Of a stretch of DNA of 35,881 bases, positions 1 to 35,299 are shown one piece after another. The stretch's first letter is position 1. Each line of letters begins with the position of its first letter. The notes beneath the pieces were generated by a model. The model was not told the DNA's origin, did not search any database, and saw only the letters and a program-made list of their open reading frames with translations. A program made the position numbers and the translations under genes. Source of the stretch: a virus (lineage: Duplodnaviria; Heunggongvirae; Uroviricota; Caudoviricetes); IMG/VR virus record IMGVR_UViG_2541047915_000013, one strand, 5' to 3'.

Positions 1-483
1 ATGACGAAGAAAAAAGCACATAAACCTGGTTCAGCGACCATCGCGCTTAACAAGCGCGCCCGTCACGAATACTTTATCGAAGAAGAGTTCGAAGCGGGAC
101 TTGCCCTGCAAGGCTGGGAGGTTAAATCCCTGCGCGCAGGAAAAGCCAATATCAGCGACAGCTATGTCCTTCTGCGCGACGGAGAGGCATTTCTGTTTGG
201 CGCTAACATCACGCCAATGGCTGTGGCCTCCACGCATGTGGTGTGCGATCCTACCCGTACCCGCAAGTTACTTCTCAACCAGCGCGAACTGGACTCATTG
301 TACGGTCGCGTCAATCGAGAAGGCTATACCGTAGTGGCGCTCTCCCTGTACTGGAAAAATGCCTGGTGCAAAGTGAAAATCGGCGTCGCCAAAGGTAAGA
401 AACAGCACGATAAACGTTCAGATATCAAAGAACGCGAATGGCAGGTGGATAAAGCGCGTATCATGAAAAATGCCCACCGTTAA
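1..483 (+). CDS. smpB: SsrA-binding protein SmpB (host core gene)
   Basis: 160-aa ORF whose translation I recognise as enterobacterial SmpB; lies immediately upstream of ssrA as in E. coli. Confidence 0.95.
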
Positions 484-697: not shown

Positions 698-1060
698 GGG
701 GCTGATTCTGGATTCGACGGGATTTGCGAAACCCAAGGTGCATGCCGAGGGGCGGTTGGCCTCGTAAAAAGCCGCAAAAAATAGTCGCAAACGACGAAAA
801 CTACGCTTTAGCAGCTTAATAACCTGCTTAGAGCCCTCTCTCCCTAGCCTCCGCTCTTAGGACGGGGATCAAGAGAGGTCAAACCCAAAAGAGATCGCGT
901 GGAAGCCCTGCCTGGGGTTGAAGCGTTAAAACTTAATCAGGCTAGTTTGTTAGTGGCGTGTCCGTCCGCAGCTGGCAAGCGAATGTAAAGACTGACTAAG
1001 CATGTAGTACCGAGGATGTAGGAATTTCGGACGCGGGTTCAACTCCCGCCAGCTCCACCA
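698..1060 (+). ncRNA. ssrA: tmRNA (transfer-messenger RNA), 363 nt
   Basis: Starts GGGGCTGATTCTGGATTCGACGGG and ends CGCCAGCTCCACCA; internal tag template GCAAACGACGAAAACTACGCTTTAGCAGCTTAA (787-819) encodes ANDENYALAA-stop. Confidence 0.95.
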
Positions 1061-1183: not shown

Positions 1184-1666
1184 ATGGAAGAACTTCACTT
1201 TGTTTACATCAATGCAAATGGTCGTATCGGTGTTCACTCAATACAGAGCATCAGTTATAGCGAAAATCATATACAGGGCATTTGTAAGAACACCGATCGA
1301 ATAAAAACCTTCCGAAAAGACCGCATTCTTAAACAGTACGATTCACCAGAACAAGCCATTCAGGAATGCGCGTCATTCCTCCCCGAAAACTACTCACATC
1401 TCACTAAGCAGTCTGGTCCGAAAAAAAATACATTCGATGTGTGCTTCACCGGATTTAAGAAAGCAGATAAAGAAAGATTGGTTGATAAGGCGAATGAACA
1501 AGGATTAACGGTAAGAACCTCTGTAACCCAAAGCCTTCAGATGCTCTGTTGCGGTTACAATGCAGGCCCATCAAAAGTATCGGCAGCCAGGATGAAAGGC
1601 ACAATCATCATAGATGAGCCTGGCTTTATACATTTTCTTGAAACGGGTGAGATCCCAGATGAATAA
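1184..1666 (+). CDS. Hypothetical protein, WYL-like N-terminal domain fused to BRCT-like C-terminal domain (accessory gene)
   Basis: N-terminal FVYINANGRIG...RIKTFRKDRI resembles the WYL motif; C-terminal CFTGF...ERLVDKANEQGLTV...GPSKVSAARMKGTIIIDE resembles a ligase-type BRCT domain; good RBS. Confidence 0.6.
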   Translation: MEELHFVYINANGRIGVHSIQSISYSENHIQGICKNTDRIKTFRKDRILKQYDSPEQAIQECASFLPENYSHLTKQSGPKKNTFDVCFTGFKKADKERLVDKANEQGLTVRTSVTQSLQMLCCGYNAGPSKVSAARMKGTIIIDEPGFIHFLETGEIPDE

Positions 1667-16916: not shown

Positions 16917-17567
16917 TCAGCGGCTGTCATTGCGCAGTCTGCGCTCCAGCTGCTGTTTGTCTTTTTTCACGCCACAGCGGGGATCGAGCTGTAACGCATG
17001 GTTGAGATGATTAAGGGCGGAAGCCGGATTACTTTCACTCAGGACAGCGCCAATCGCTTTATGCAGACGCGCCCGTGACTGGTCCGGCATATCCAGACCG
17101 TCTGTCAGCTCCAGCGTCTGCAGCAACAGATCGGCATCAAAGCCGGTAGTGGCAAGCATTGCGCTCTGTGCCGCGTCTGCCATTTCCTCTGCCAGCACGG
17201 TCTGCACGTTGCGGTTACCCAGCGGCATCACCCAGCCATGACGCAGGGCATGACGCCCGATCTCCAGCGCCCCGGCATAATCTCCGGCATCAATACGCCA
17301 CAGCATCACGTACATCAGCACGTCATCCTGTTGAGCGCCTCCGGCAGCCAGAACACCCTCCGCCCAGGCGGCGTACTTCGGCAGCAGCTCCACTTTGATT
17401 TCCGCTTTTTTGACCGTGGACTGAACACCCTTGAGACGGCGTCGGTCTTCCGCCAGTTGCAGCAGCATCAGGTCATAGCCCGACGCGTGGCGAACGCTGC
17501 CGCCCTCGCGGGCGGCCTGTTCAGCCTGAACGCGCAGGCGATGCTGCCGTGCGGGACTCAGGCTCAT
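16917..17567 (-). CDS. M: Terminase endonuclease (small) subunit M
   Basis: 216 aa, gpM-like. Confidence 0.85.
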   Translation of the reverse strand: MSLSPARQHRLRVQAEQAAREGGSVRHASGYDLMLLQLAEDRRRLKGVQSTVKKAEIKVELLPKYAAWAEGVLAAGGAQQDDVLMYVMLWRIDAGDYAGALEIGRHALRHGWVMPLGNRNVQTVLAEEMADAAQSAMLATTGFDADLLLQTLELTDGLDMPDQSRARLHKAIGAVLSESNPASALNHLNHALQLDPRCGVKKDKQQLERRLRNDSR

Positions 17568-19621: not shown

Positions 19622-21388
19622 ATGAACACCACACTGACACCCGCAGATCTCGATCCCCGTCGGCAGGCCATGCTGCTGTACTTTCAGGGATACCGCGTAG
19701 CCCGCATTGCTGAAATGCTGGGCGAGAAAGTTGCAACCGTTCACAGCTGGAAAAAACGCGACAAGTGGGGTGACTATGGGCCGCTGGATCAGATGCAGCT
19801 CACCACCGCCGCACGCTACTGCCAGCTCATTATGAAGGAGCACAAAGAAGGGAAAGATTTCAAAGAGATTGACCTGCTGGCGCGCCAGTCTGAGCGCCAC
19901 GCGCGGATCGGCAAGTTTAACAATGGCGGCAACGAAGCCGACTTAAACCCTAACGTCGCCAACCGCAATAAAGGCCCACGCCGTCAGCCGGAAAAGAATG
20001 TTTTCACCGATGAGCAGATTGAGAAGCTGGAAGAAATCTTCCATTCCTCCATGTTCAACTACCAGCGCCACTGGTGGGAAGCCGGAAAAACCAACCGCAT
20101 CCGCAACCTGCTGAAGTCACGCCAGATCGGCGCGACCTTCTATTTTGCCCGTGAAGCCCTGATTGACGCCCTGCTTACCGGACGTAACCAGATTTTCCTT
20201 TCTGCCAGTAAGGCTCAGGCCCACGTCTTTAAACAATACATCATCGACTTCGCCAAAGAAGTCGAGGTGGAGCTAAAAGGCGATCCGATGGTGCTTCCTA
20301 ACGGAGCTACGCTTTACTTCCTCGGCACCAATGCCCGCACGGCCCAGAGTTATCACGGCAACCTGTATCTGGATGAATATTTCTGGATACCGAAATTCCA
20401 GGAGCTGCGCAAAGTGGCTTCCGGGATGGCTATTCACAAAAAATGGCGACAAACCTATTTTTCCACGCCATCCAGCCTGACCCACAGTGCTTATCCGTTC
20501 TGGTCCGGTGCGCTGTTCAACCGTGGACGCAACAAAGCTGACAAGGTGGACATCGACCTGTCCCACAGCAATCTGGCCCCCGGCCTGCTGTGCGCAGACG
20601 GGCAATACCGCCAGATAGTCACCGTGGAAGATGCGGTGCGCGGCGGCTGTAACCTGTTCGACCTCGACCAGCTACGCTTGGAGTACAGCCCGGACGAATA
20701 CCAGAACCTGCTGATGTGCGAGTTCGTGGACGATCTCGCGTCCGTGTTCCCGCTCAGCGAACTGCAGGCGTGCATGGTGGACAGCTGGGAAGTCTGGACC
20801 GACTTTCATGCACTGGCCCTGCGCCCGTTTGGCTGGCGCGAAGTGTGGATCGGTTATGACCCGGCAAAAGGTACGCAGAACGGCGACAGTGCCGGATGCG
20901 TGGTGGTGGCTCCGCCAGCCGTGCCGGGTGGTAAGTTCCGCATTCTTGAGCGTCACCAGTGGCGCGGGATGGACTTCCGCGCCCAGGCTGACGCCATCAA
21001 AAAACTCACCGAACAGTACAACGTGACCTATATCGGTATCGACTCAACCGGCGTTGGTCACGGGGTTTATGAGAACGTGAAAGCGTTCTTTCCTGCCGTC
21101 CGGGAGTTTGTCTACAACCCCAATGTTAAAAACGCCCTGGTACTCAAGGCCTATGACATTATCAGCCACCGCCGTCTGGAGTTTGACGCCGGGCACACCG
21201 ACATTGCGCAGTCATTCATGGCAATCCGTCGCGCAACCACCGCCAGCGGCAACCGCCCGACCTATGAAGCCAGCCGCAGCGAAGAAGCCAGCCACGCCGA
21301 TCTGGCCTGGGCAACAATGCACGCACTGTTTAACGAACCGCTGCAGGGCGAATCCGCCAATACCAGCAATATTGTGGAGATTTTTTGA
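19622..21388 (+). CDS. P: Terminase ATPase (large) subunit P
   Basis: 588 aa, gpP-like. Confidence 0.9.
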   Translation: MNTTLTPADLDPRRQAMLLYFQGYRVARIAEMLGEKVATVHSWKKRDKWGDYGPLDQMQLTTAARYCQLIMKEHKEGKDFKEIDLLARQSERHARIGKFNNGGNEADLNPNVANRNKGPRRQPEKNVFTDEQIEKLEEIFHSSMFNYQRHWWEAGKTNRIRNLLKSRQIGATFYFAREALIDALLTGRNQIFLSASKAQAHVFKQYIIDFAKEVEVELKGDPMVLPNGATLYFLGTNARTAQSYHGNLYLDEYFWIPKFQELRKVASGMAIHKKWRQTYFSTPSSLTHSAYPFWSGALFNRGRNKADKVDIDLSHSNLAPGLLCADGQYRQIVTVEDAVRGGCNLFDLDQLRLEYSPDEYQNLLMCEFVDDLASVFPLSELQACMVDSWEVWTDFHALALRPFGWREVWIGYDPAKGTQNGDSAGCVVVAPPAVPGGKFRILERHQWRGMDFRAQADAIKKLTEQYNVTYIGIDSTGVGHGVYENVKAFFPAVREFVYNPNVKNALVLKAYDIISHRRLEFDAGHTDIAQSFMAIRRATTASGNRPTYEASRSEEASHADLAWATMHALFNEPLQGESANTSNIVEIF

Positions 21389-22419
21389 TGGGAAAGAGTA
21401 AGAAGAACCGCGCTGCGGCGACGAAACAGATCCAGCTTAAAAGCCAGACTACAGCCGAAGCATTCAGCTTCGGCGATCCCGTTCCTGTTCTGGATCGCCG
21501 AGAACTGCTGGACTATGTGGAATGCGTACAGATGGACCGTTGGTATGAGCCGCCCGTCAGCTTTGACGGACTGGCGCGCACCTTCCGCGCTGCCGTGCAT
21601 CACAGTTCCCCGATTGCAGTAAAGTGCAACATTCTGACCAGTACCTATATCCCTCATCCGCTGCTCAGCCAGCAGGCTTTTTCGCGTTTTGTACAGGACT
21701 ATCTGGTATTTGGTAACGCCTACCTGGAGAAACGCACGAACCGATTCGGTGAAGTTATCGCCCTTGAGCCTGCGCTGGCAAAATACACCCGACGCGGGTT
21801 AGACCTGGATACCTACTGGTTTGTGCAATACGGTATGACAACCCAGCCGTATCAGTTCACGAAAGGCAGCATTTTTCATCTGATGGAACCGGACATCAAC
21901 CAGGAGATCTACGGCCTGCCCGGTTATCTTTCTGCCATTCCGTCAGCTCTGCTCAACGAGTCCGCCACGCTGTTCCGCCGCAAGTATTACATTAACGGCA
22001 GTCATGCAGGCTTCATCATGTACATGACCGATGCTGCGCAGAACCAGGAGGATGTGAACAACCTCCGCAATGCGATGAAAAGCGCCAAAGGTCCTGGTAA
22101 CTTCCGTAACCTGTTTATGTACTCGCCTAACGGTAAAAAGGACGGGCTTCAGATTATCCCGTTGTCAGAAGTGGCGGCGAAGGATGAGTTCCTGAATATC
22201 AAGAACGTGAGCCGGGACGACATGATGGCGGCGCATCGTGTGCCGCCACAAATGATGGGGATAATGCCTAATAATGTCGGGGGGTTTGGGGATATCGAAA
22301 AGGCAAGCACAGTATTTGTACGAAATGAGCTACTGCCTCTACAAAAAATGTTTCTAGAAATAAATAATTGGTTAAACGATAGAATTATAAATTTTTCAAC
22401 CTACGAACTAAAAATTTAA
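21385..22419 (+). CDS. Q: Portal protein Q (3' end low-GC)
   Basis: 344 aa, gpQ-like; the last ~45 codons are AT-rich like the adjacent cargo. Confidence 0.9.
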   Translation: MMGKSKKNRAAATKQIQLKSQTTAEAFSFGDPVPVLDRRELLDYVECVQMDRWYEPPVSFDGLARTFRAAVHHSSPIAVKCNILTSTYIPHPLLSQQAFSRFVQDYLVFGNAYLEKRTNRFGEVIALEPALAKYTRRGLDLDTYWFVQYGMTTQPYQFTKGSIFHLMEPDINQEIYGLPGYLSAIPSALLNESATLFRRKYYINGSHAGFIMYMTDAAQNQEDVNNLRNAMKSAKGPGNFRNLFMYSPNGKKDGLQIIPLSEVAAKDEFLNIKNVSRDDMMAAHRVPPQMMGIMPNNVGGFGDIEKASTVFVRNELLPLQKMFLEINNWLNDRIINFSTYELKI

Positions 22420-22436
22420 TTAAGATAATTTAGTCG

Positions 22437-22454
22437 GCCTCATTTCTGAGGCCA
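22437..22454. terminator. Hairpin between the convergent Q and ATPase genes
   Basis: GGCCTCA-tttc-TGAGGCC, followed on the plus strand by ATATTTT. Confidence 0.4.
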
Positions 22455-22459
22455 TATTT

Positions 22460-23890
22460 TCATCTTGAAAGTATCACCCGTTCAAACAATGGCATTAATT
22501 GAGAATAAACATTATCATAATGTTCATCATTTAAAAGATGATATTTATTTTCAAGTTTGATGCTATTAAAACCATCCATGAAACTCTCATAACCAACAGT
22601 GCCAATAATAATCTGATTTGTAAGGGAAAACCCATCCAAGCATAGTTTTATAAGCTTATGCGTATGCTCTGGATCCAAATCTTGTTGCTTTGGAGAGTCT
22701 ATTACTATAGGCATATTCTCAACTGAAGAGTTGCTTTTCATAACACTAAGTAGCGCGTAGTGAAATGCAAATATACCTCGAGGACCTCGACTACCAGTCT
22801 TACCCTTAGTAATATTATTATAACTACTAAGGCCACCTACCTTTGTATTTTCGACACCAAGCTCTTTAAGAGCTTTAGCGAAATACTCTTTGAAACAGTC
22901 ATTTATTTTAACAGTTCTTTTCTTATCATTGTATACTTCTAATTCTTCTTGTAATTCTGTCAACTCGCCTTCTTTTCGACCAATCTCAACGAATAACTCA
23001 TCTAACTGTGAAACAAAAGTAGATTCAATTTCATGGTATGCAGCAGATTTAATAACATCATGAAGCGTTATTTCCGATTGAGTTTCTAAAATCAGCGCCT
23101 GCAACGCCTCTGAAGCAGCCCTTGACTCTTCTAGCTTTTGATTCAATTTAGGAATATTTTCCTCAATCTTGCTTTTCTCATCTGCAAGAACAGCAATGTT
23201 TTTGAGCATTTCATCTCTATGGTTTATATAATTATATTCATTTACTGAATAAGCAACATTATCATCTCGAAAATTCGAAATCTCAAATTCATTATCAATA
23301 ATCGCAGTTATCTCTTTGAGTTCACTCTCAAGGAAATTCTTCCTAGAATATAACCTCAAAAGATTCAATCTATATTCTGTCTGAACTAAATTCAAATTAG
23401 AATATTCATTTAATATACGTTCTAACTTTGATTTATAAAAATCCAAATCAACATCAAATAAAACCACACCAAAAGATTCATCAATCTTACTTTTGCTTCT
23501 TTTTAGAACCTTAACAAAACCATCTAACTCTGAAATTTTAACTTTAACTTCTTTGATTTTCCCTTGAACTGTGTAATATTCCTTTGGCTTAATTCCAGAG
23601 TGATAGTAAAGAATGTTTTTTTGCCATTCTGAGTACATACTCATGTTTTCGAAAGAATTTATCACCGCTTTCCATCCTTCATCCTGATCAATAAAGAATG
23701 GGGCAAACAAACAAGCAGGGTTTGCCTGAGTCGTAGCACCCGTATATTTATTATGTAATTCCAGTTTAAAACCAAATATATTTGAAACACGAGATGCTAA
23801 TGACGAAATCGTGTTATACACGACTAGATCATCATTCTTCAAATCAAAGACACCAATAATCTTTTTATAACGCAAAAAAAATAAAATCAC
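22460..23890 (-). CDS. SMC/ABC-type ATPase, C-terminal part (LmuB/DUF3732-like), separated from its P-loop by a frameshift
   Basis: Long coiled-coil region, then PIVIDSP (Walker-B-like) and DPEH (H-loop-like); no Walker A in this ORF; about 30% GC. Confidence 0.6.
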   Translation of the reverse strand: MILFFLRYKKIIGVFDLKNDDLVVYNTISSLASRVSNIFGFKLELHNKYTGATTQANPACLFAPFFIDQDEGWKAVINSFENMSMYSEWQKNILYYHSGIKPKEYYTVQGKIKEVKVKISELDGFVKVLKRSKSKIDESFGVVLFDVDLDFYKSKLERILNEYSNLNLVQTEYRLNLLRLYSRKNFLESELKEITAIIDNEFEISNFRDDNVAYSVNEYNYINHRDEMLKNIAVLADEKSKIEENIPKLNQKLEESRAASEALQALILETQSEITLHDVIKSAAYHEIESTFVSQLDELFVEIGRKEGELTELQEELEVYNDKKRTVKINDCFKEYFAKALKELGVENTKVGGLSSYNNITKGKTGSRGPRGIFAFHYALLSVMKSNSSVENMPIVIDSPKQQDLDPEHTHKLIKLCLDGFSLTNQIIIGTVGYESFMDGFNSIKLENKYHLLNDEHYDNVYSQLMPLFERVILSR

Positions 23891-24134
23891 TTTCCCCGTT
23901 ATTAATTTCCACCAGTGTAACTATATCATCTGATTTCCAAGCATCATCAAGCCTTAAATCTCCACCTAATGTGTAATAAAGACTTTTAATCAGGCTTGAT
24001 TTACCAACATCATTTGTACCATATATGAAGTTAACCCCTTCTGAAAACTCATAAGAAAAAGCTTTTCTGTCTCTTAATGAGAGTATTTTTATATTTTTAA
24101 ATTTAACGTTATTCTTCATAAGAAACATCCTCAA
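23865..24134 (-). CDS. SMC/ABC-type ATPase, N-terminal P-loop fragment
   Basis: Walker A GTNDVGKSSL; frame ends inside a T8 tract where the downstream ORF continues in the +1 frame. Confidence 0.6.
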   Translation of the reverse strand: MRMFLMKNNVKFKNIKILSLRDRKAFSYEFSEGVNFIYGTNDVGKSSLIKSLYYTLGGDLRLDDAWKSDDIVTLVEINNGESDFIFFAL

Positions 24135-25188
24135 AAGTCAACTTTATAATTGCATATATAGCAATCATAAATTTCTCTTCTTGATTTAATAAAGAGAAAT
24201 CCCCGTCCCCCGCTGCAATTGTTTTTTCGAGTGTAAAGAAGAGGTCTCGAACAGGTATCTCACGATAATGCTCTATACTCTTTAGAGCCGATTGAAATTC
24301 CAGAAAATAAAGATAGTATATTGAATTGACATTGAGCACTTTTATTGATATGCGTGTAAAAACTGATTGTAATTTAATCCCCTCATAAGGATCTGAGAAA
24401 GTACCAAGCAACATACAAACCTGTTCCCATTTTGGCGTTATTTTTATGCTTGCAATGAGTCCAGATAATAAATCAGTTACAAATTCTGAAGATATACCTT
24501 TCTTTAGTACTAAATCTTCAAAAGTTTTGATATCACTAGAAGCAACACTAACCTTCTCATTACACTTATTGATTAATAATTTAGTGAATGCTGTTGAATT
24601 AATACCATGATCATCCCCAAAGTAAGAATTCAAAAAAACTGCAACTTTCCCGTATAAATGTGAGTTAGGATCTAACAAACTAAGATCAGATGTTTTAAAT
24701 TTTATTTTATCAAGAGGAACTTCTTTTTTAGTATTTAGCTGCTCTTGAACCTTACTAATTATAATTTCCTTATGCTCATTATTAAGATCACTACCTTTTT
24801 CGTTATTATCATTTAAGAAATCGAATCCAGCATTCGATAACAGAACCATATAAATTTCGTGACCAACGAATTGATAGAAATGGTCATATAGTTTTGCAAC
24901 AAATGATTTAGGTTTAGCTTTTGTTGCGTTCACTATTGCTGCGAGTGTCCATTTACCATCTTTTTTTGTTTTAACTTGGATAAACTCAGCACTAGTCGGA
25001 GAAACAGATGAATTCAATACAAGAATATCGTCATGATATTCAAATAGAAATAAATATTTCTCCTTTTCTTTTTGTTTCTCAAGTAAATAATTTATCCCCC
25101 AAGAGGCTTGATATGAAAAGCCTCTCAACGCGTTTTCACCGCCCCGTTCTGCTTGATTTACTGTAATTAACGCATCTGATAACGCCAC
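24109..25188 (-). CDS. PD-(D/E)xK nuclease-like protein of the Cap4/DUF4297 type (LmuA-like)
   Basis: N-terminal GGENALRGFSYQ ... YHDDILVL ... EFIQVK motifs; GTG start with AGGGA ribosome-binding site; about 30% GC. Confidence 0.55.
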   Translation of the reverse strand: MALSDALITVNQAERGGENALRGFSYQASWGINYLLEKQKEKEKYLFLFEYHDDILVLNSSVSPTSAEFIQVKTKKDGKWTLAAIVNATKAKPKSFVAKLYDHFYQFVGHEIYMVLLSNAGFDFLNDNNEKGSDLNNEHKEIIISKVQEQLNTKKEVPLDKIKFKTSDLSLLDPNSHLYGKVAVFLNSYFGDDHGINSTAFTKLLINKCNEKVSVASSDIKTFEDLVLKKGISSEFVTDLLSGLIASIKITPKWEQVCMLLGTFSDPYEGIKLQSVFTRISIKVLNVNSIYYLYFLEFQSALKSIEHYREIPVRDLFFTLEKTIAAGDGDFSLLNQEEKFMIAIYAIIKLTFEDVSYEE

Positions 25189-25273
25189 TCTATATATCCC
25201 TATTGTACTGCTTTTTTTGATACAAATTACCTTAGCTTCACCATCAAGTCCACAGATTCATGGCTAAGCGCGC

Positions 25274-25293
25274 GCTCGTATCCCCGCCACGCC
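25274..25293 (-). other. cos-like site (putative cohesive-end sequence)
   Basis: Minus-strand GGCGTGGCGGGGATACGAGC; the first 13 nt match the P2/186 cohesive-end sequence as I recall it. Confidence 0.4.
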
Positions 25294-25337
25294 TGCCCGC
25301 TTTATGTAGTGGTTTTCATGCACCTGCATGATCTACG

Positions 25338-25362
25338 CAAAAGCCCGCCAGTTCTGGCGGGC
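25338..25362 (-). terminator. Rho-independent terminator after the dinI-like operon
   Basis: GCCCGCCAG-aac-CTGGCGGGC hairpin followed by TTTTG on the minus strand. Confidence 0.55.
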
Positions 25363-25497
25363 CTTAGCAAAAACGATCCTCAAACGATCATGCGATCTCA
25401 TGCGGCATAGACATGCACTACAGAGCTAACGCCTCGCAAGGGCTCGTTGTTCAACCTTGCTGACGCCAGAAGCAAGTTCAGACGCCAGCAACGTTTC

Positions 25498-25731
25498 TTA
25501 ATGCAGCCAGCTGTCGTCTTCCCACACCTTCTGCATAATTTTCATCACTTGTTTTCTTTCTTCGTCCTGTTGCAGTCCGGTCAGTTCCACACCGTTAGAG
25601 CTACCTTTGCGGATACGAATTACCGTTTTGGGATACAGGGAGCGCAGATTGCGGTAAAGCTCGGATTCAAGGGCGTCCATGGTAGACTGGCTAATCTTCT
25701 GCTCTTTATCGATCATTATTTCAATGCGCAT
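25498..25731 (-). CDS. DinI-family protein (DNA-damage-inducible protein I-like)
   Basis: MRIEIMIDKEQ...LESELYRNLRSLYP...VWEDDSWLH resembles DinI; start set at the internal ATG at 25731; the ORF is open to 25803. Confidence 0.7.
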   Translation of the reverse strand: MRIEIMIDKEQKISQSTMDALESELYRNLRSLYPKTVIRIRKGSSNGVELTGLQQDEERKQVMKIMQKVWEDDSWLH

Positions 25732-25741
25732 AAAAGTCACC

Positions 25742-25930
25742 TCAGCTGATGACATCCATTGAGCGGTTGTATTCGTGGGTTCTGATTTTTGCCATGAGTT
25801 CATCAGTCAATTCAGAAACCCACTGCAGAGCCAGCCCCTTATCTTCATCACTACACTCACTAGCCGCTACAAGCTTAAGAAAAAAATCAATGCGCTGGAG
25901 CTTCAAAGACTCCAAAAAATAGTCCTGCAT
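25742..25930 (-). CDS. Hypothetical protein, first gene of the LexA-box operon
   Basis: ATG at 25930 preceded by AGGAGG; LexA box about 45 bp upstream. Confidence 0.5.
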   Translation of the reverse strand: MQDYFLESLKLQRIDFFLKLVAASECSDEDKGLALQWVSELTDELMAKIRTHEYNRSMDVIS

Positions 25931-25971
25931 CTTTCCTCCTATGACACCACACGCAATACTGTATGTATAAT

Positions 25972-25991
25972 CACTGTTTATATTTACAGTA
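25972..25991. promoter_or_regulatory. LexA (SOS) box
   Basis: CACTGTTTATATTTACAGTA fits CTGT-N8-ACAG. Confidence 0.65.
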
Positions 25992-26083
25992 TATAATAAT
26001 CTTACTGATGTAAAACGTTTTTTTACGTTCATCAGCCTGATATGCCTGGTATTATTAAGAGCACGAATTGTTAACCCGCGTAA

Positions 26084-28498
26084 TTAATACAGGTTCCGCC
26101 ACTGATCATCTTCCTGCAAACGCTGGTTCCGATAGAAGATACGCAGGCCTGCTCCTGACGGAATACTGCCTCCGCGAAGGAGTAAATCGACCTCTTTCTC
26201 GCTGCCATCAAATCCTCTGGACTTCAGCTCATACACGAGCTGCAGTCGCTGATGGTCTGTAATTCGCTGTTTGTAGTCTTTACGCCGTTTCGGTTTCACC
26301 TGGCGTAACCTTGCAGCCAGTTCCCGGCGCTCTTTTTTGCTCATACTGTGCAGGTAATCGTGCAACTCCTTGTCATTCATACAGGTAATATCCGTTCTGG
26401 AGTCCCCATCAGCTGATTTGTCTTTCCCTTGTTGGTTCAAATTTTCAGCAAGGGGACAGTTATTGCCACGAGTCCAAGGGGCGCAAGCGCCCTGGTCGGC
26501 TGCCGCCTCCTGAACGTCAACGGCCTTACGAACTATTTTCCACTTCACTGCATGAGTGCAGATCTTGCCCTCTGCAATGGGTGACCAGATGCCATAAATA
26601 CGAATGCCGTGATCGCCATAGGCGGTCGGCTCTTCGTTGATTTCATAAGCGGTTCTGATCAGGTGATATTTGCGGGGAACCAGTACGCCGCCCTGCTTCA
26701 TGATGTAGGTGGCAAAACAACCAGCATCAGCAGCAGCCAGGATTGCATCAAGGCGCGGGTTATCCAGTACCGGCGCACCTGCTTTTTTGTCCCCCTGTTG
26801 CCTTGCCGCCTGACCAGCCAGCAATCGCAGTTCACGGTAAGCCTGACGCCCCGGAATGCCAAAGAAGCGGAATTGCTGAACACGATGCAGAGACGCCCAG
26901 GCATTAACGTATTCAGCGTTATCACGCAGGGATTTACCCGTTTCCTTGCTGATCTCGCCAGCCAGACCACGCCCGTCAATGTTCTTACTAATGTATTTCG
27001 CGATGTAGCTTGTCGGCGTTCCTTTGCGCGGGTTAATCAACTCAGACTTAAAGCGCGGCCCTGTGTTATTGCCCAGCTCCTCGCGGTCTTCACGGATGGC
27101 AAACTTACGCAGTAATGCAGTGATGGCGCGGCGGTCTTTTTTGCGCATAAAACACAACAGGTGCCAGTGAACTGTACCGTCATGATGCGGCTCAGCCACC
27201 CGCACGCCATACCACCGCAATCCGGCTTTGTGCATCGCCTTACGAAATGCAGCAAACATGCCGACCAGATAATCACTGCTTTGTCTTACCGTCGCATTTG
27301 TCCAGGTTGGGTTGGGCCTGCCGTTATTTAGCGTGGAATGGAAACGTGACGGACAGGTGATGGTGTAGAAAACGGCGCAGTCACCGCGCATTTCCGCGAT
27401 AAGCTCCAGACCTTTAACACAGGCCATCATCTCATTGCGGCGATGCGCAGGGTTGCTGCTGCTGGCGTTTACCACATCTTCCATATCCAGCGTGTCGCCG
27501 TCTTCGTTCACCAGTTCATGAGAACGAAAAAACTCCAGCGACTTACGGCGCTGCTCACGTTTATGCATCACGGCTTCATAGCTGACATAGGGGGATGCTT
27601 TTTTGCTGACCAGGCAGACAGCACGCAACTGCTCTTCCCGCCATTCGCAACGCATCTTCCATAATTTCCGATACCACCAGTCGGCACACAACATACGCGC
27701 CAGCGAACCCGGAATGAGTTCATAGGGCACGGGTTTACGGCGGTTTCTTTTCCGACGGAGTTGCTCAAACGCAGGCGGAATAACATCCAGACGCAGGGTT
27801 TCCGCTGCCACCTTTTCCCATGTTTTGCGGATTTCTTCTGGCTTAACGTCATCGGTGGCATACAAATCGCCACAAGCTGCATCAAGACACATGCTCATAT
27901 GCGCAGCAACAAGGGTGGACAGGCGTTTCACCTGATCCTGACTCATTTCAGGCAGGATCAGCAGGCCGTCCAGCCCTTCATGGCTTGCCATAAAGCGAAA
28001 AGAAGTGGATAGCTGACTCTCGCGTACATGCTCCAGTCGTTCCAGACATGGCTTAATCGTCTCACGCAAATAGCGGGAATAAGCCTTTGGCCTGCCCAGG
28101 CTGCTGAAGTATTCAATACGTTGCATCAGCGGCTTGCTGATATGGGAAGGCTGGGCGTTGACGTCCGCCAGAATGACCATGTCTGGATTAAAACGCTGCT
28201 GCTCATGCGCCAGCTTTGCCCGGCTAATGAGCTTATCCTGCTCCATTTCGCGCTGGACAGGATCACGGGATTCATTAAAGAAATAACGCTCCCAGACCTG
28301 ATCACTCAGTGCCTCACGGCGCAGTTGTTCCTGCTCGTTATCGGCAGCGTACAGAGTGATCAGGTTTGAAAGCGCAGAAACCGGCGCAACTTCCGCCGGG
28401 TCCAGATAAGGGTTAATAGCCTTTTTCGGGCTGTTCCATGAGAATGCTGCGGCGGCCTCGTTAAAGCCGCTGCAGTTGTTCATATCAGCATGGCTCAT
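26084..28498 (-). CDS. A: Replication initiation endonuclease A (rolling-circle initiator)
   Basis: 804 aa; HxH motif (VHWHLL) and YIAKYISK tyrosine motif; gpA-like. Confidence 0.9.
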
Positions 28499-29352
28499 GC
28501 ACGCACTCCGTACACGGCAGAACTATCCACGCCACGCGAAGGATCAAATCCCACCCAGCAGCGCGCCCCAGAAACAGCGATGATTTCTGTTGCAGATTTA
28601 CTCTCACCAGCTGCTACGCCGATGCTGCGTTTTGCCTTGATGTAGTGGTGAGTAAAATTGCGATACAGCGAACGGATCAGGGATGTGTCACTGTTAGAAA
28701 CAATGACCGGATGTCCTTCTGATGACCGATGTTCAAGAACGGATGCCAGGTGATACTGGTCATCTTCAGTGAAGCCGTCAGTGTGATAACCGGAAAACGT
28801 GCCGTCATACGGCGGATCGCAATACACCACATCCCCCGCCTTCAACATCGCCAGCGTTTCATCAAAGCTGGCGCAGATAAACGTTGCCCGCTGGGCTTTC
28901 TCTGCAAATGCGCGAATTTCTTTTTCAGGGAAATACGGATTTTTATAATTACCGTAGGGAATGTTGAAATACCCGCTCTTGTTATAGCGACATAACCCAC
29001 GGTAACCATGACGATTGAGATACAGAAAATATACCGCTTTCATGAAATCAGTAATTTCAGTGGAGTAATTAAACTTCTGCCTTATGTTGTAATAAGCCAC
29101 CTCCCTGTTTGCTTCCTCAAATAAAGCTCTGGCACGAGATATAAATGCCTCACAATCAGCAGCAACCTTTTTATAGAGGTTGATTAAATCAGGATTAATA
29201 TCCGCAACAAGATAGCTGGGGTAATCCGTCTCCATCATCACAGCACAGGAACCCGCGAAAGGTTCAACCAGTCGCGGGCCAGCAGGAAGGTGTTTTTTCA
29301 GTTCGGACATAATGGCGGTTTTATTTCCCGCCCATTTCAGGATGGTGCTCAT
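28495..29352 (-). CDS. dam: DNA adenine methyltransferase (Dam-like, N6-adenine)
   Basis: N-terminal SAM-binding region and DPPY motif (YCDPPYDG); start set at the ATG at 29352 ([11 protein letters not shown]). Confidence 0.8.
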
Positions 29353-29576
29353 ACAGCACCTCCGTTGTAATGTTTGCCTTTCAGCTCTGCAATTTCCTGG
29401 CAGGTAATGCAAAGCTGCACACCCGGAATGGCACGGCGGCGTGCTGGCGGAATTGGCGCTTCACACTCAATGCAAAGCACGCGAGACACGCCCGGTGTTT
29501 TGGCACGGGCAGCACGGATATGGCGCTGGCGTTCTTCTTCAACGCGCTGCTGTACGAGATCCATTGCATCAGCCAT
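29349..29576 (-). CDS. TraR/DksA-family C4 zinc-finger protein
   Basis: CIECEAPIPPARRRAIPGVQLCITCQ motif. Confidence 0.7.
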   Translation of the reverse strand: MADAMDLVQQRVEEERQRHIRAARAKTPGVSRVLCIECEAPIPPARRRAIPGVQLCITCQEIAELKGKHYNGGAV

Positions 29577-33324: not shown

Positions 33325-35058
33325 CTACTCAAGGAGATATTCTAACTCATCTTTTATCGGGATAATTTGCTCATAAAGTCGGTGATATGACTTCCCAATT
33401 GCGCCTCTAAATTGTATTAACTTTGGTGGCTTACTACCTATATTAATAATATGGTCTTGAGCTATACCTGGGTAGGGATCAATAAATACAATTTCAGATA
33501 TACCTAACTGATAAGCTTTTTTCGCACACAACTCACAGGGACTGGCAGTTGTATACAACTTCCCCCCCAGAACGCCAATACCACCATATTTTGCAAGTTG
33601 CAAAAATGCGTTTTCCTCAGCATGTAATGCACGTGTATGAACTTGATTACCTTTTTTCTCTTTATCAAGATCATTATGTATATCTTTAAAACAATAAGAT
33701 AAGTTCCTGCCTCTATAAATATCACCAGTTTTATCTATCGCCCTAAAATTTAAGAGTTTCTCATTAGCTTTAATTCTGAAAGAACTATTATTTCTCTCAT
33801 AATGACTGTACGTTTTTTCATCAAAATCGTTCATTAGGCCATCTAGAGATCTCATAGAGCAAGGAATCTGACCGTTGGCAACATCATTCCAACCAACTGA
33901 TTTTATTGAATTATCACCATCAGTTACTACAGCTCCCACCTGTCTAGATATACAGCCAGAGTTTAATTTTACCGTATACGCAACTTGCATAACCCTTTCC
34001 ATTGCAGTAGGTGTTATCAGACCAGGATGCTTCATCAGTGCGATGTACCACGCTAATTGTGCTTTTAAAATATTGTCATTATCAAATTCATTTTTTGGGT
34101 TAAAAATGTGTATATCTGATAGTTCAATACATTTAGTTACATTTGGATTGGTGAGATGTTTGTAAGAGTTATCACCTTTACCTGACTCTACAGAATCTAT
34201 TTCCTCTATCTGCTTTTCTGAAAACTTATGTAGTTTCCGCAAATAGTTTGTTCGATGTTCATCCGGGGCATTTATTGACATTAAATGAAATGCAGAATAT
34301 CTATCCTTAAAAAATTTTGCCTCATATGGATTTCTAATAGCATCTATGACAATTAATGCGTTATCTCTTTTGCTTTTTCTTATTAATTTAATAACCCTAT
34401 TAATAGTTTCCGGCAAATGAAAAACAGATTTAGGCATAAACTCTTTATCTTCAAAATCGACTTCAATACGCCCACGACGTCTAATTGACTTACCTGCTAA
34501 CTGATAGGCTGAAACATATAAATTTGAGTTTATCTCATTTAGTTCAGCTTTGAATTCTTTAGTAAATTTTCTAACTAACTTCAAAATTGATATAAATTTA
34601 TTAATCGTTTTTTCATCAAGCTTCAATTCACTATTATGATCAAGCAAATTCTCAATTACATTTTTAAATCTTGTCAAAATGAGATTATCTGAGAATACAC
34701 CAAAAGTTAATACAATATCTAAATGCTCTTTACTGATAGATTTATTAGATGATAGAATGAATTCAGAAGCTTCCTCAGCTGTTAACATCAGAAGATACGC
34801 TGAGATTAGGTCACTCACCTTAATTGAGTAAAAATTTTCCCAGTGATTTTCTGCGAATTTTTTAACTATATTATAACGATGGACATCCAATCCCTTGTAA
34901 AACCCCTGTAATTTACTTACATCAGGGAAGACTGTTTTTTCGTTTTCAAGAATATTAGCTGTTGTTGTGCAACCAGAACCAGTTCGACCTGTCAAACCGA
35001 CTAAAATAAACTGCCCATTTTCAAGGAAAAGCTCACTAACGAATTTTTTTTCTTTCAT
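33325..35058 (-). CDS. P-loop kinase-like / cytidine deaminase fusion protein (AvcD/dCTP-deaminase-like accessory gene)
   Basis: N-terminal P-loop GRTGSGCTT; C-terminal deaminase zinc motifs HAEENA and SPCELC; ATG at 35058; about 30% GC. Confidence 0.7.
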   Translation of the reverse strand: MKEKKFVSELFLENGQFILVGLTGRTGSGCTTTANILENEKTVFPDVSKLQGFYKGLDVHRYNIVKKFAENHWENFYSIKVSDLISAYLLMLTAEEASEFILSSNKSISKEHLDIVLTFGVFSDNLILTRFKNVIENLLDHNSELKLDEKTINKFISILKLVRKFTKEFKAELNEINSNLYVSAYQLAGKSIRRRGRIEVDFEDKEFMPKSVFHLPETINRVIKLIRKSKRDNALIVIDAIRNPYEAKFFKDRYSAFHLMSINAPDEHRTNYLRKLHKFSEKQIEEIDSVESGKGDNSYKHLTNPNVTKCIELSDIHIFNPKNEFDNDNILKAQLAWYIALMKHPGLITPTAMERVMQVAYTVKLNSGCISRQVGAVVTDGDNSIKSVGWNDVANGQIPCSMRSLDGLMNDFDEKTYSHYERNNSSFRIKANEKLLNFRAIDKTGDIYRGRNLSYCFKDIHNDLDKEKKGNQVHTRALHAEENAFLQLAKYGGIGVLGGKLYTTASPCELCAKKAYQLGISEIVFIDPYPGIAQDHIINIGSKPPKLIQFRGAIGKSYHRLYEQIIPIKDELEYLLE

Positions 35059-35253
35059 CACGTCCCACTTATGAATGCAAGAACAATTAACATATTAATT
35101 GTAATTTATTAACTAATTTTATTCTAGATACTTGATGTAATGGCGGCACTTTGGCGGCAGAGCATTAAAAACGCGTAAGACGAGCAAATACAAAATAACA
35201 CTAACACATTGTTTTCAAACATAATCTACTGTTTTTACTATAATAAAAATGGT

Positions 35254-35299
35254 ATGTAGGAATTTCGGACGCGGGTTCAACTCCCGCCAGCTCCACCAA
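35254..35299. repeat. attR core: second copy of the 46-bp ssrA 3'-end repeat
   Basis: Exact copy of 1016-1061; not a second tmRNA gene, only the terminal 46 bp. Confidence 0.85.

Follow-up and report, generated by a model that had tools for sequence, protein, structure and literature searches.

The window analysed here, i.e., the whole 35,881-nt stretch of DNA from a record of a tailed virus (Caudoviricetes), contains a prophage of the P2/186 type, which is reversed relative to the P2 map and sits in the tmRNA gene ssrA. The attachment repeats (Table 1) delimit an element of 34,238 bp, which would also be the length of the excised circle. From left to right, the minus strand of the element first presents ogr, the tail gene D with other tail genes, L, M, N (capsid), and O (scaffold). 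This block is followed by P and Q on the plus strand, two low-GC cargo genes on the minus strand, the predicted cos, a gene for a DinI-like protein, a small ORF, A, and a methylase gene; the rightmost part carries CII, CI, and the integrase gene. The packaging genes, viz., those for the terminase, portal, capsid, scaffold, and head-completion proteins, are full length, and a cognate P2-type terminase made up of gpM and gpP homologues is encoded within the same element as cos. By analogy with P2, its small subunit is expected to recognise cos and its large subunit to cut there. The methylase, a Dam-type orphan N6-adenine methyltransferase (28495-29412, minus strand), lies directly upstream of A and overlaps it.

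Table 1. Features of the prophage and of its predicted cos region, by position in the window
Feature	Position	Strand	Remarks
smpB	1-483		left end of window
tmRNA gene (ssrA)	698-1060		left end of window
Attachment repeats	1016-1061 and 35254-35299		46-nt direct repeat without mismatch, from the 3' end of ssrA
Small terminase subunit, P2 gpM type (M)	16917..17567	-	Pfam Phage_term_smal, E 1.4e-40
Large terminase subunit, P2 gpP type (P)	19622..21388	+	Pfam Terminase_6N, Terminase_6C, Terminase_5
Portal gene Q	21385..22419	+	Pfam Phage_portal; aligns with P2 Q and 186 W
Low-GC cassette, including the last ~110-170 nt of Q	~22300..25267		GC ~0.31 versus 0.52 in the backbone
Terminator-like hairpin	22436..22453	+	between the stop codons of Q and LmuB
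LmuB, SMC-like ATPase	22460..24134	-	two ORFs, 23865-24134 and 22460-23890
LmuA, Lamassu effector, Cap4-type dsDNA nuclease domain	24109..25188	-	PADLOC E 4e-143; Pfam Cap4_nuclease E 1.4e-33
Whole conserved cos block	25268..25417	-	spans -124 to +25, counted from the first base of the end; 65-locus profile
55-bp cos core	25268..25322	-	29 nt on the replication-gene side, 19-nt end, CGCGCGC
Predicted 19-nt cohesive end GGCGTGGCGGGGATACGAG	25275..25293	-	identical to putative cos of SEN8 and Cartapus
Proximal TGCAT box, offset -29	25318..25322	-	inverted copy at 25325-25329
GC-rich palindrome GCCCGCCAG AA CTGGCGGGC, then TTTT	25339..25363	-	9+9, inside the cos block
Distal GCAT boxes	25390..25417	-	TGCAT 25417-25413, CGCAT 25404-25400, CGCAT 25394-25390
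DinI-like gene	25498..25731	-	on the A side of cos, where 186 has tum; Pfam DinI E 3e-23
Replication gene A	26084..28498	-	Pfam Phage_GPA E 6e-128

A sequence-only reading of this DNA had pointed to 20 nt of the minus strand as a possible cos, on the grounds that their first 13 nt matched the P2/186 cohesive-end sequence. The minus strand at 25293..25274 indeed reads GGCGTGGCGGGGATACGAGC, exactly as given there. When set against the annotated records, with 186 cos as GGCGTGGCGGGGAAAGCAT and P2 cosL/cosR as GGCGAGGCGGGGAAAGCAC, the match is exact for 186, whose end opens with the same 13 nt as the window, but falls one position short for P2 (12/13, with A at position 5). The extent of the site likewise needs trimming: by homology, the 19 nt at 25293..25275 constitute the cohesive end, whereas the twentieth base, the C at 25274, lies outside it as the first base of a conserved CGCGCGC. 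In P2, 186, and P4, too, CGCGCGC or TGCGCGC follows the end. The predicted end GGCGTGGCGGGGATACGAG agrees with the annotated cos at 15 of 19 positions in 186 and at 14 of 19 in both P2 and P4, with differences at positions 14, 16, 17, and 19 (ATACGAG in the window versus AAAGCAT or AAAGCAC in 186, P2, and P4). All 19 of its positions agree with the annotated cos of Salmonella phage SEN8 (NC_047753) and with that of Escherichia phage Cartapus (NC_070909). The SEN8 record begins with the 19-mer, labelled ‘putative cos site’, and the same sequence is the cos reported for that phage (PMC5427200); in Cartapus, it falls within a feature described as ‘putative cos site, homologous to the cos of P2 phage’. 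Following the annotation of 186 and P2, we predict a minus-strand nick 5' of 25293 and a plus-strand nick between 25275 and 25274.

The cos sites of 186, P2, and P4 are described as having 19-nt 5' cohesive ends and a 55-bp core, which is common to P2 and P4 (Ziermann and Calendar 1990, as cited in PMC9594776 and PMC5694545). Alignment with the cos regions of P2 and 186, which had been put forward as a check on the match, recovers this core in the window with the same boundaries, its identity being 42/55 to P2, 44/55 to 186, 43/55 to P4, and 54/55 to SEN8 and Cartapus. The core of the window consists of 29 upstream nt, tgcatgaaaaccactacataaagcgggca, the end GGCGTGGCGGGGATACGAG, and the 7 downstream nt cgcgcgc, that of 186 of tgcattaaaaccgacccataaagtgggca, its annotated end, and tgcgcgc; the cores of P2 and P4 are similar to this pair. 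The polarity is also that of P2, with the left end reading toward Q, here on the minus strand, and the gene order A, DinI, cos, (cargo), Q places the site at the P2-family position when the P2 and 186 maps are compared. The window holds a single cos-like site, with none elsewhere and, in particular, no second cos adjoining Q of the kind seen in P2; just 40 bp separate Q from LmuB in the window. An Rfam search of 22000-26200 (E up to 0.1) returned no match.

Could the agreement of 13 nt with the 186 cos be fortuitous? The 13-mer is G-rich, and when up to two mismatches are allowed such sequences are not rare, with 4 found against 1.8 expected in the window. Yet the exact 13-mer, GGCGWGGCGGGGA, occurs once over both strands, against an expectation of 0.01 per window (100 shuffles), and the 44 core positions shared with 186, the orientation, the map position, and the spacing of the boxes considered below all concur with it. 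The rarity of the 13-mer, the identity of the core, the GCAT boxes, and the block conserved across 65 loci effectively refute a chance match.

For the comparison with relatives, 80 loci around Q homologues were collected, one genome per species, and the 65 distinct ones with a recognisable cos were profiled in an ungapped manner, anchored on the cohesive end. Mean column conservation across these 65 loci is 0.81 within the block, as against 0.38 upstream and 0.39 downstream. Its edges are abrupt, one lying at -124, with the first GCAT box, and the other at +25/+26, with the last base of the CGCGCGC. The 19-mer and its immediate flanks form the best-conserved columns (0.94-1.0), and the version of the end seen in the window is the commonest, being present in 33 of the 65 distinct loci. 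A conserved island of this kind between two background flanks, in many species, argues against both a chance match and a relic. Within it, (T/C)GCAT boxes occupy the offsets -124, -111, -101, and -29 in P2, 186, P4, and the window alike; SEN8 has TGCAT at -124 and -111 and, as in the window, CGCAT at -101. The distal three boxes are each present in 78-82% of the 65 loci and the proximal one in 92%. The sequence between the boxes is unrelated among P2, 186, and P4, and each of these regions is enriched for the GCAT motif over shuffles. We regard the distal boxes as candidate recognition repeats of the terminase.

The GC-rich palindrome inside the block has a predicted RNA fold of -26.2 kcal/mol (z-score -4.05) and columns conserved at 0.8-0.95. 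It is probably the terminator of the DinI-side operon, and it may serve as that terminator, as a part of cos, or as both. At -70 to -51, it is a difference of the window from 186, P2, and P4; in the 186 and P4 sequences, palindromes can be made out by eye at the corresponding place. So strong a terminator-like hairpin, together with cargo genes that begin ~105 nt away, would fit the idea that the 150-bp block is kept for a reason other than packaging, such as termination of the DinI/SOS operon or regulation of the cargo, with the 19-mer being incidental. However, the hairpin makes up only ~25 of the 150 nt, and it is the 19-mer and its flanks that top the conservation profile. The GCAT offsets, moreover, are kept in P2, 186, and P4 despite unrelated neighbour genes, and P4, which is without a DinI operon, has the same core. 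We therefore consider such a non-packaging role for the block highly improbable.

Thus, the 19-mer, the 55-bp core, the orientation, the GCAT offsets, and the 150-bp block all agree in pointing to a P2-family cos, as had been suspected from the 13 nt. A site of this kind might still be a relic, left inactive in a defective prophage or in one packaged from another site, with the block retained by recent descent. In keeping with this, one cargo gene carries a frameshift (see below), which shows some decay or a sequencing error. Conversely, the conservation of the block in 65 loci from different species, with both flanks at background, bespeaks selection and not recent descent; no rival cos-like site is found in the window; none of the packaging genes named above is truncated, and the attachment repeats are perfect; and the plaque-forming phage SEN8 has the identical 19-mer, likewise with cargo between it and Q. 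Hence, a relic is very unlikely. We estimate at roughly 90% the probability that the prophage in ssrA, of P2/186 type, 34.2 kb long, and apparently intact, has its cos region at 25268-25417, with a Lamassu operon in the slot between cos and Q, probably placed there by exchange. By extension from P2 and 186, the terminase (16917-17567 and 19622-21388) would recognise ~125 bp on the replication-gene side, with the four GCAT boxes, and would nick the two strands 19 nt apart, leaving GGCGTGGCGGGGATACGAG as a 5' overhang. Since 4 of the 19 end positions differ from 186, the specificity of the terminase for this end is putative. On the portal side, nothing is conserved more than 7 bp past the end, and this side therefore tolerates foreign DNA; the Q-side flank would, going by P2 and 186, be dispensable for packaging.

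The cargo in this slot comprises adjacent genes for LmuA and LmuB, both of which match their PADLOC models over the full length and which together define a Lamassu system of the Cap4-nuclease type; the third Lamassu gene, LmuC, is absent from the slot. The map and the gene assignments uphold the second claim of the sequence-only reading, namely that the nuclease/ATPase cargo lies between cos and the portal gene Q and not on the replication-gene side. On the A side of cos, there is just one ORF, of 62 codons, besides the DinI-like gene, as in 186 (with tum) and unlike P2, where old/tin lie between A and cosR, i.e., on the opposite side of cos to the cargo of the window. Of the two genes, LmuA comes first after cos, with its transcription directed away from the site and toward Q; the same 1080-nt gene is annotated in RefSeq relatives. 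LmuB is split by one extra A, which alignment locates to an A8 run at 23874-23881 that is A7 in the E. coli relatives, and the PADLOC matches of its two ORFs span profile positions 2-81 and 79-549. The E values obtained for the pair of fragments are 1e-208 and 1e-39. In all five relatives checked, LmuB is intact (1659 nt), and in one of them, strain L73, LmuA is split instead. The extra A may stem from an error in sequencing or may truly inactivate the gene; given this frameshift, the Lamassu cargo may be inactive in the window.

The low-GC Lamassu operon would run from cos toward Q and end at a shared hairpin (22436-22453), an AT-context structure that stands where relatives with an empty site have a GC-rich terminator. 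Between cos and LmuA, no sigma-70 promoter match of at least 9/12 was found, and promoter-like hits in this region are no commoner than in shuffles. In virion DNA, the cassette would constitute the first ~2.9 kb of the left end, with the Lamassu operon starting ~105 nt in. Of 5,426 complete E. coli genomes, 1,221 have a Q of this type with cos, and 11 carry the same cassette. The identity of the window to E. coli VG888-46E9 over 21900-25300 is 99.9%. A scan of viral contigs with LmuA for a donor of the cassette recovered five copies of the same cassette and nothing else.

The edges of the cassette are telling as to how it was probably acquired. On the cos side, homology to relatives ends 7 bp past the end, at 25268/25267, and foreign DNA starts directly after the core. 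On the portal side, the edge falls within Q: past ~22300, the sequence loses its nucleotide identity to relatives and the GC content drops to 0.18-0.28, with the encoded C-terminus still being homologous. In the 55 loci with cargo, the Q tail (last 90 nt) follows the slot in GC content (Spearman 0.78, versus 0.17 for the Q body), and empty sites show a backbone-like GC content in the Q tail. In six loci with similar three-gene cargo, the cargo is 52-77% identical and the Q tails diverge about as much. Further, the segment 22300-25267 is 99.3-99.4% identical to its counterparts in Klebsiella phage Kp4845-2 and E. coli GF47, as compared to 96-97% over the 3 kb on either side, a modest excess (99.4% versus 96-97%); mismatches against these two cease at 22197-22251 and set in again at 25347-25359, shortly beyond the cos core. 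Most likely, the cassette was acquired by exchange with another P2-like phage, with crossovers inside the 3' end of Q and at or next to the cos block.

Exchange of cargo with P4-type satellites was also considered. The shared core architecture would permit it, but the cassette holds a fragment of the portal gene, which P4 lacks, and this route is disfavoured; according to the 2026 NAR study, P2 and P4 exchange hardly any defence genes (PMC13586616). In the psu-int hotspot of P4, the cargo (gop, beta, cII) directly follows this 55-bp core, on the corresponding side of cos, P4 being a satellite without a portal gene, unlike the prophage of the window.

We put forward two linked proposals, for which we would jointly claim somewhat less than even odds. 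First, defence cassettes in this lineage may be transferred together with the last ~100-170 nt of Q as single units, with crossovers anchored in the Q body and the 150-bp cos block, such that the C-terminus of the portal protein is recoded with each cargo. Second, the part of cos that binds the terminase would be the one marked by the fixed-offset GCAT boxes, and this part would end exactly where the variable region on the replication-gene side starts. Rousset et al. 2022 had proposed recombination at the cohesive ends along with a second homologous crossover (PMC9122126); the first of these proposals, if true, turns this idea of recombination at cos into a defined, testable module.

The slot on the Q side proves to be variable throughout the relatives, being empty (~150-250 bp) in some and filled with different cargo in others. 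From the Q stop codon to the cos end, the gap is ~2,855 nt in the window, compared with 167 nt for P2 and 176 nt for 186. Across the 67 loci with a cos, where the surveyed distances carry an offset of 1 nt, it is at most 300 nt in 10 and greater than 600 nt in 55 (median 1,683). Placement of cargo between cos and Q, seen in these 55 of 67 loci, is therefore usual for this lineage. Slot ORFs of 120 codons or more overwhelmingly run from cos toward Q (98/104), and their proteins match 310 PADLOC families, including PDC-M11, bSEFIR, AbiL, AriA, and PD-T4-9. The gap from cos to A ranges from 452 to 4,379 nt and exceeds 900 nt in 26 of the 43 loci in which it is measurable; both slots are filled in 21 of these 43. 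Both flanking gaps vary widely, and so both sides of cos are variable.

Insertions next to cos have a long history in this group. A cargo slot between cos and a terminator is known from the retrons Ec67/Ec86 in 186-related prophages (Dodd and Egan 1996, as cited in PMC6868368 and PMC5694545). Other P2-like phages, such as phiCTX and phiRSY1, are reported to carry ORFs between cosL and the gpQ homologue, which has been suggested to be a hotspot, with reference to Dodd and Egan 1996 and Nakayama 1999 (PMC5694545). In the retron prophages, as in the window, the foreign DNA starts right after the cos core; however, their cargo is a retron whose other edge lies at the terminator of the portal gene, whereas the Lamassu segment of the window starts at ~22200-22300, inside Q and ~110-170 nt before its stop codon, and brings its own terminator. 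SEN8 and Cartapus resemble the window in also bearing cargo between cos and the portal gene, but the cargo differs, being a hypothetical protein and an HNH endonuclease in the former and a DUF4145 protein in the latter.

The defence hotspot adjacent to cos in P2-like phages, gpA-gpQ, was defined by Rousset et al. 2022 (PMC9122126) and extended to thousands of elements in the 2026 NAR study (PMC13586616). Like the locus of the window, it is a variable, cos-adjacent site that houses defence systems, with SMC-type systems among those listed. The descriptions of the hotspot in these two sources delimit it by its flanking genes and leave the cargo's side of cos unstated. Our comparison shows that the published gpA-gpQ hotspot consists of two variable slots divided by the 150-bp cos block. 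Both the cos variant and the cargo slot have already been described, the site being an ordinary P2-family cos, and the separation of the two sides of cos is a refinement that introduces no new kind of thing; the understanding of cos sites or of defence hotspots is unchanged. What it does provide is a fixed physical map, with Lamassu in the predicted first ~2.9 kb of the virion left end and just the SOS-type DinI gene on the replication side. The two-slot view is also relevant to the automatic delimitation of cargo and to the design of P2-type cosmids.

Additional genes are found next to the attachment sites. A 160-aa ORF between attL and ogr (1184-1666, plus strand), with a weak PADLOC PDC-S48 match (E 2e-7) and no Pfam match, may be further cargo at this att-proximal end. 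Between the integrase gene and attR, a 578-aa protein (33325-35061, minus strand) combines a PADLOC dCTPase match (E 1e-145) with a Pfam deaminase domain; this dCTP deaminase gene adds a second defence cargo to the prophage and occupies the minor ‘integrase-att’ hotspot (PMC13586616).
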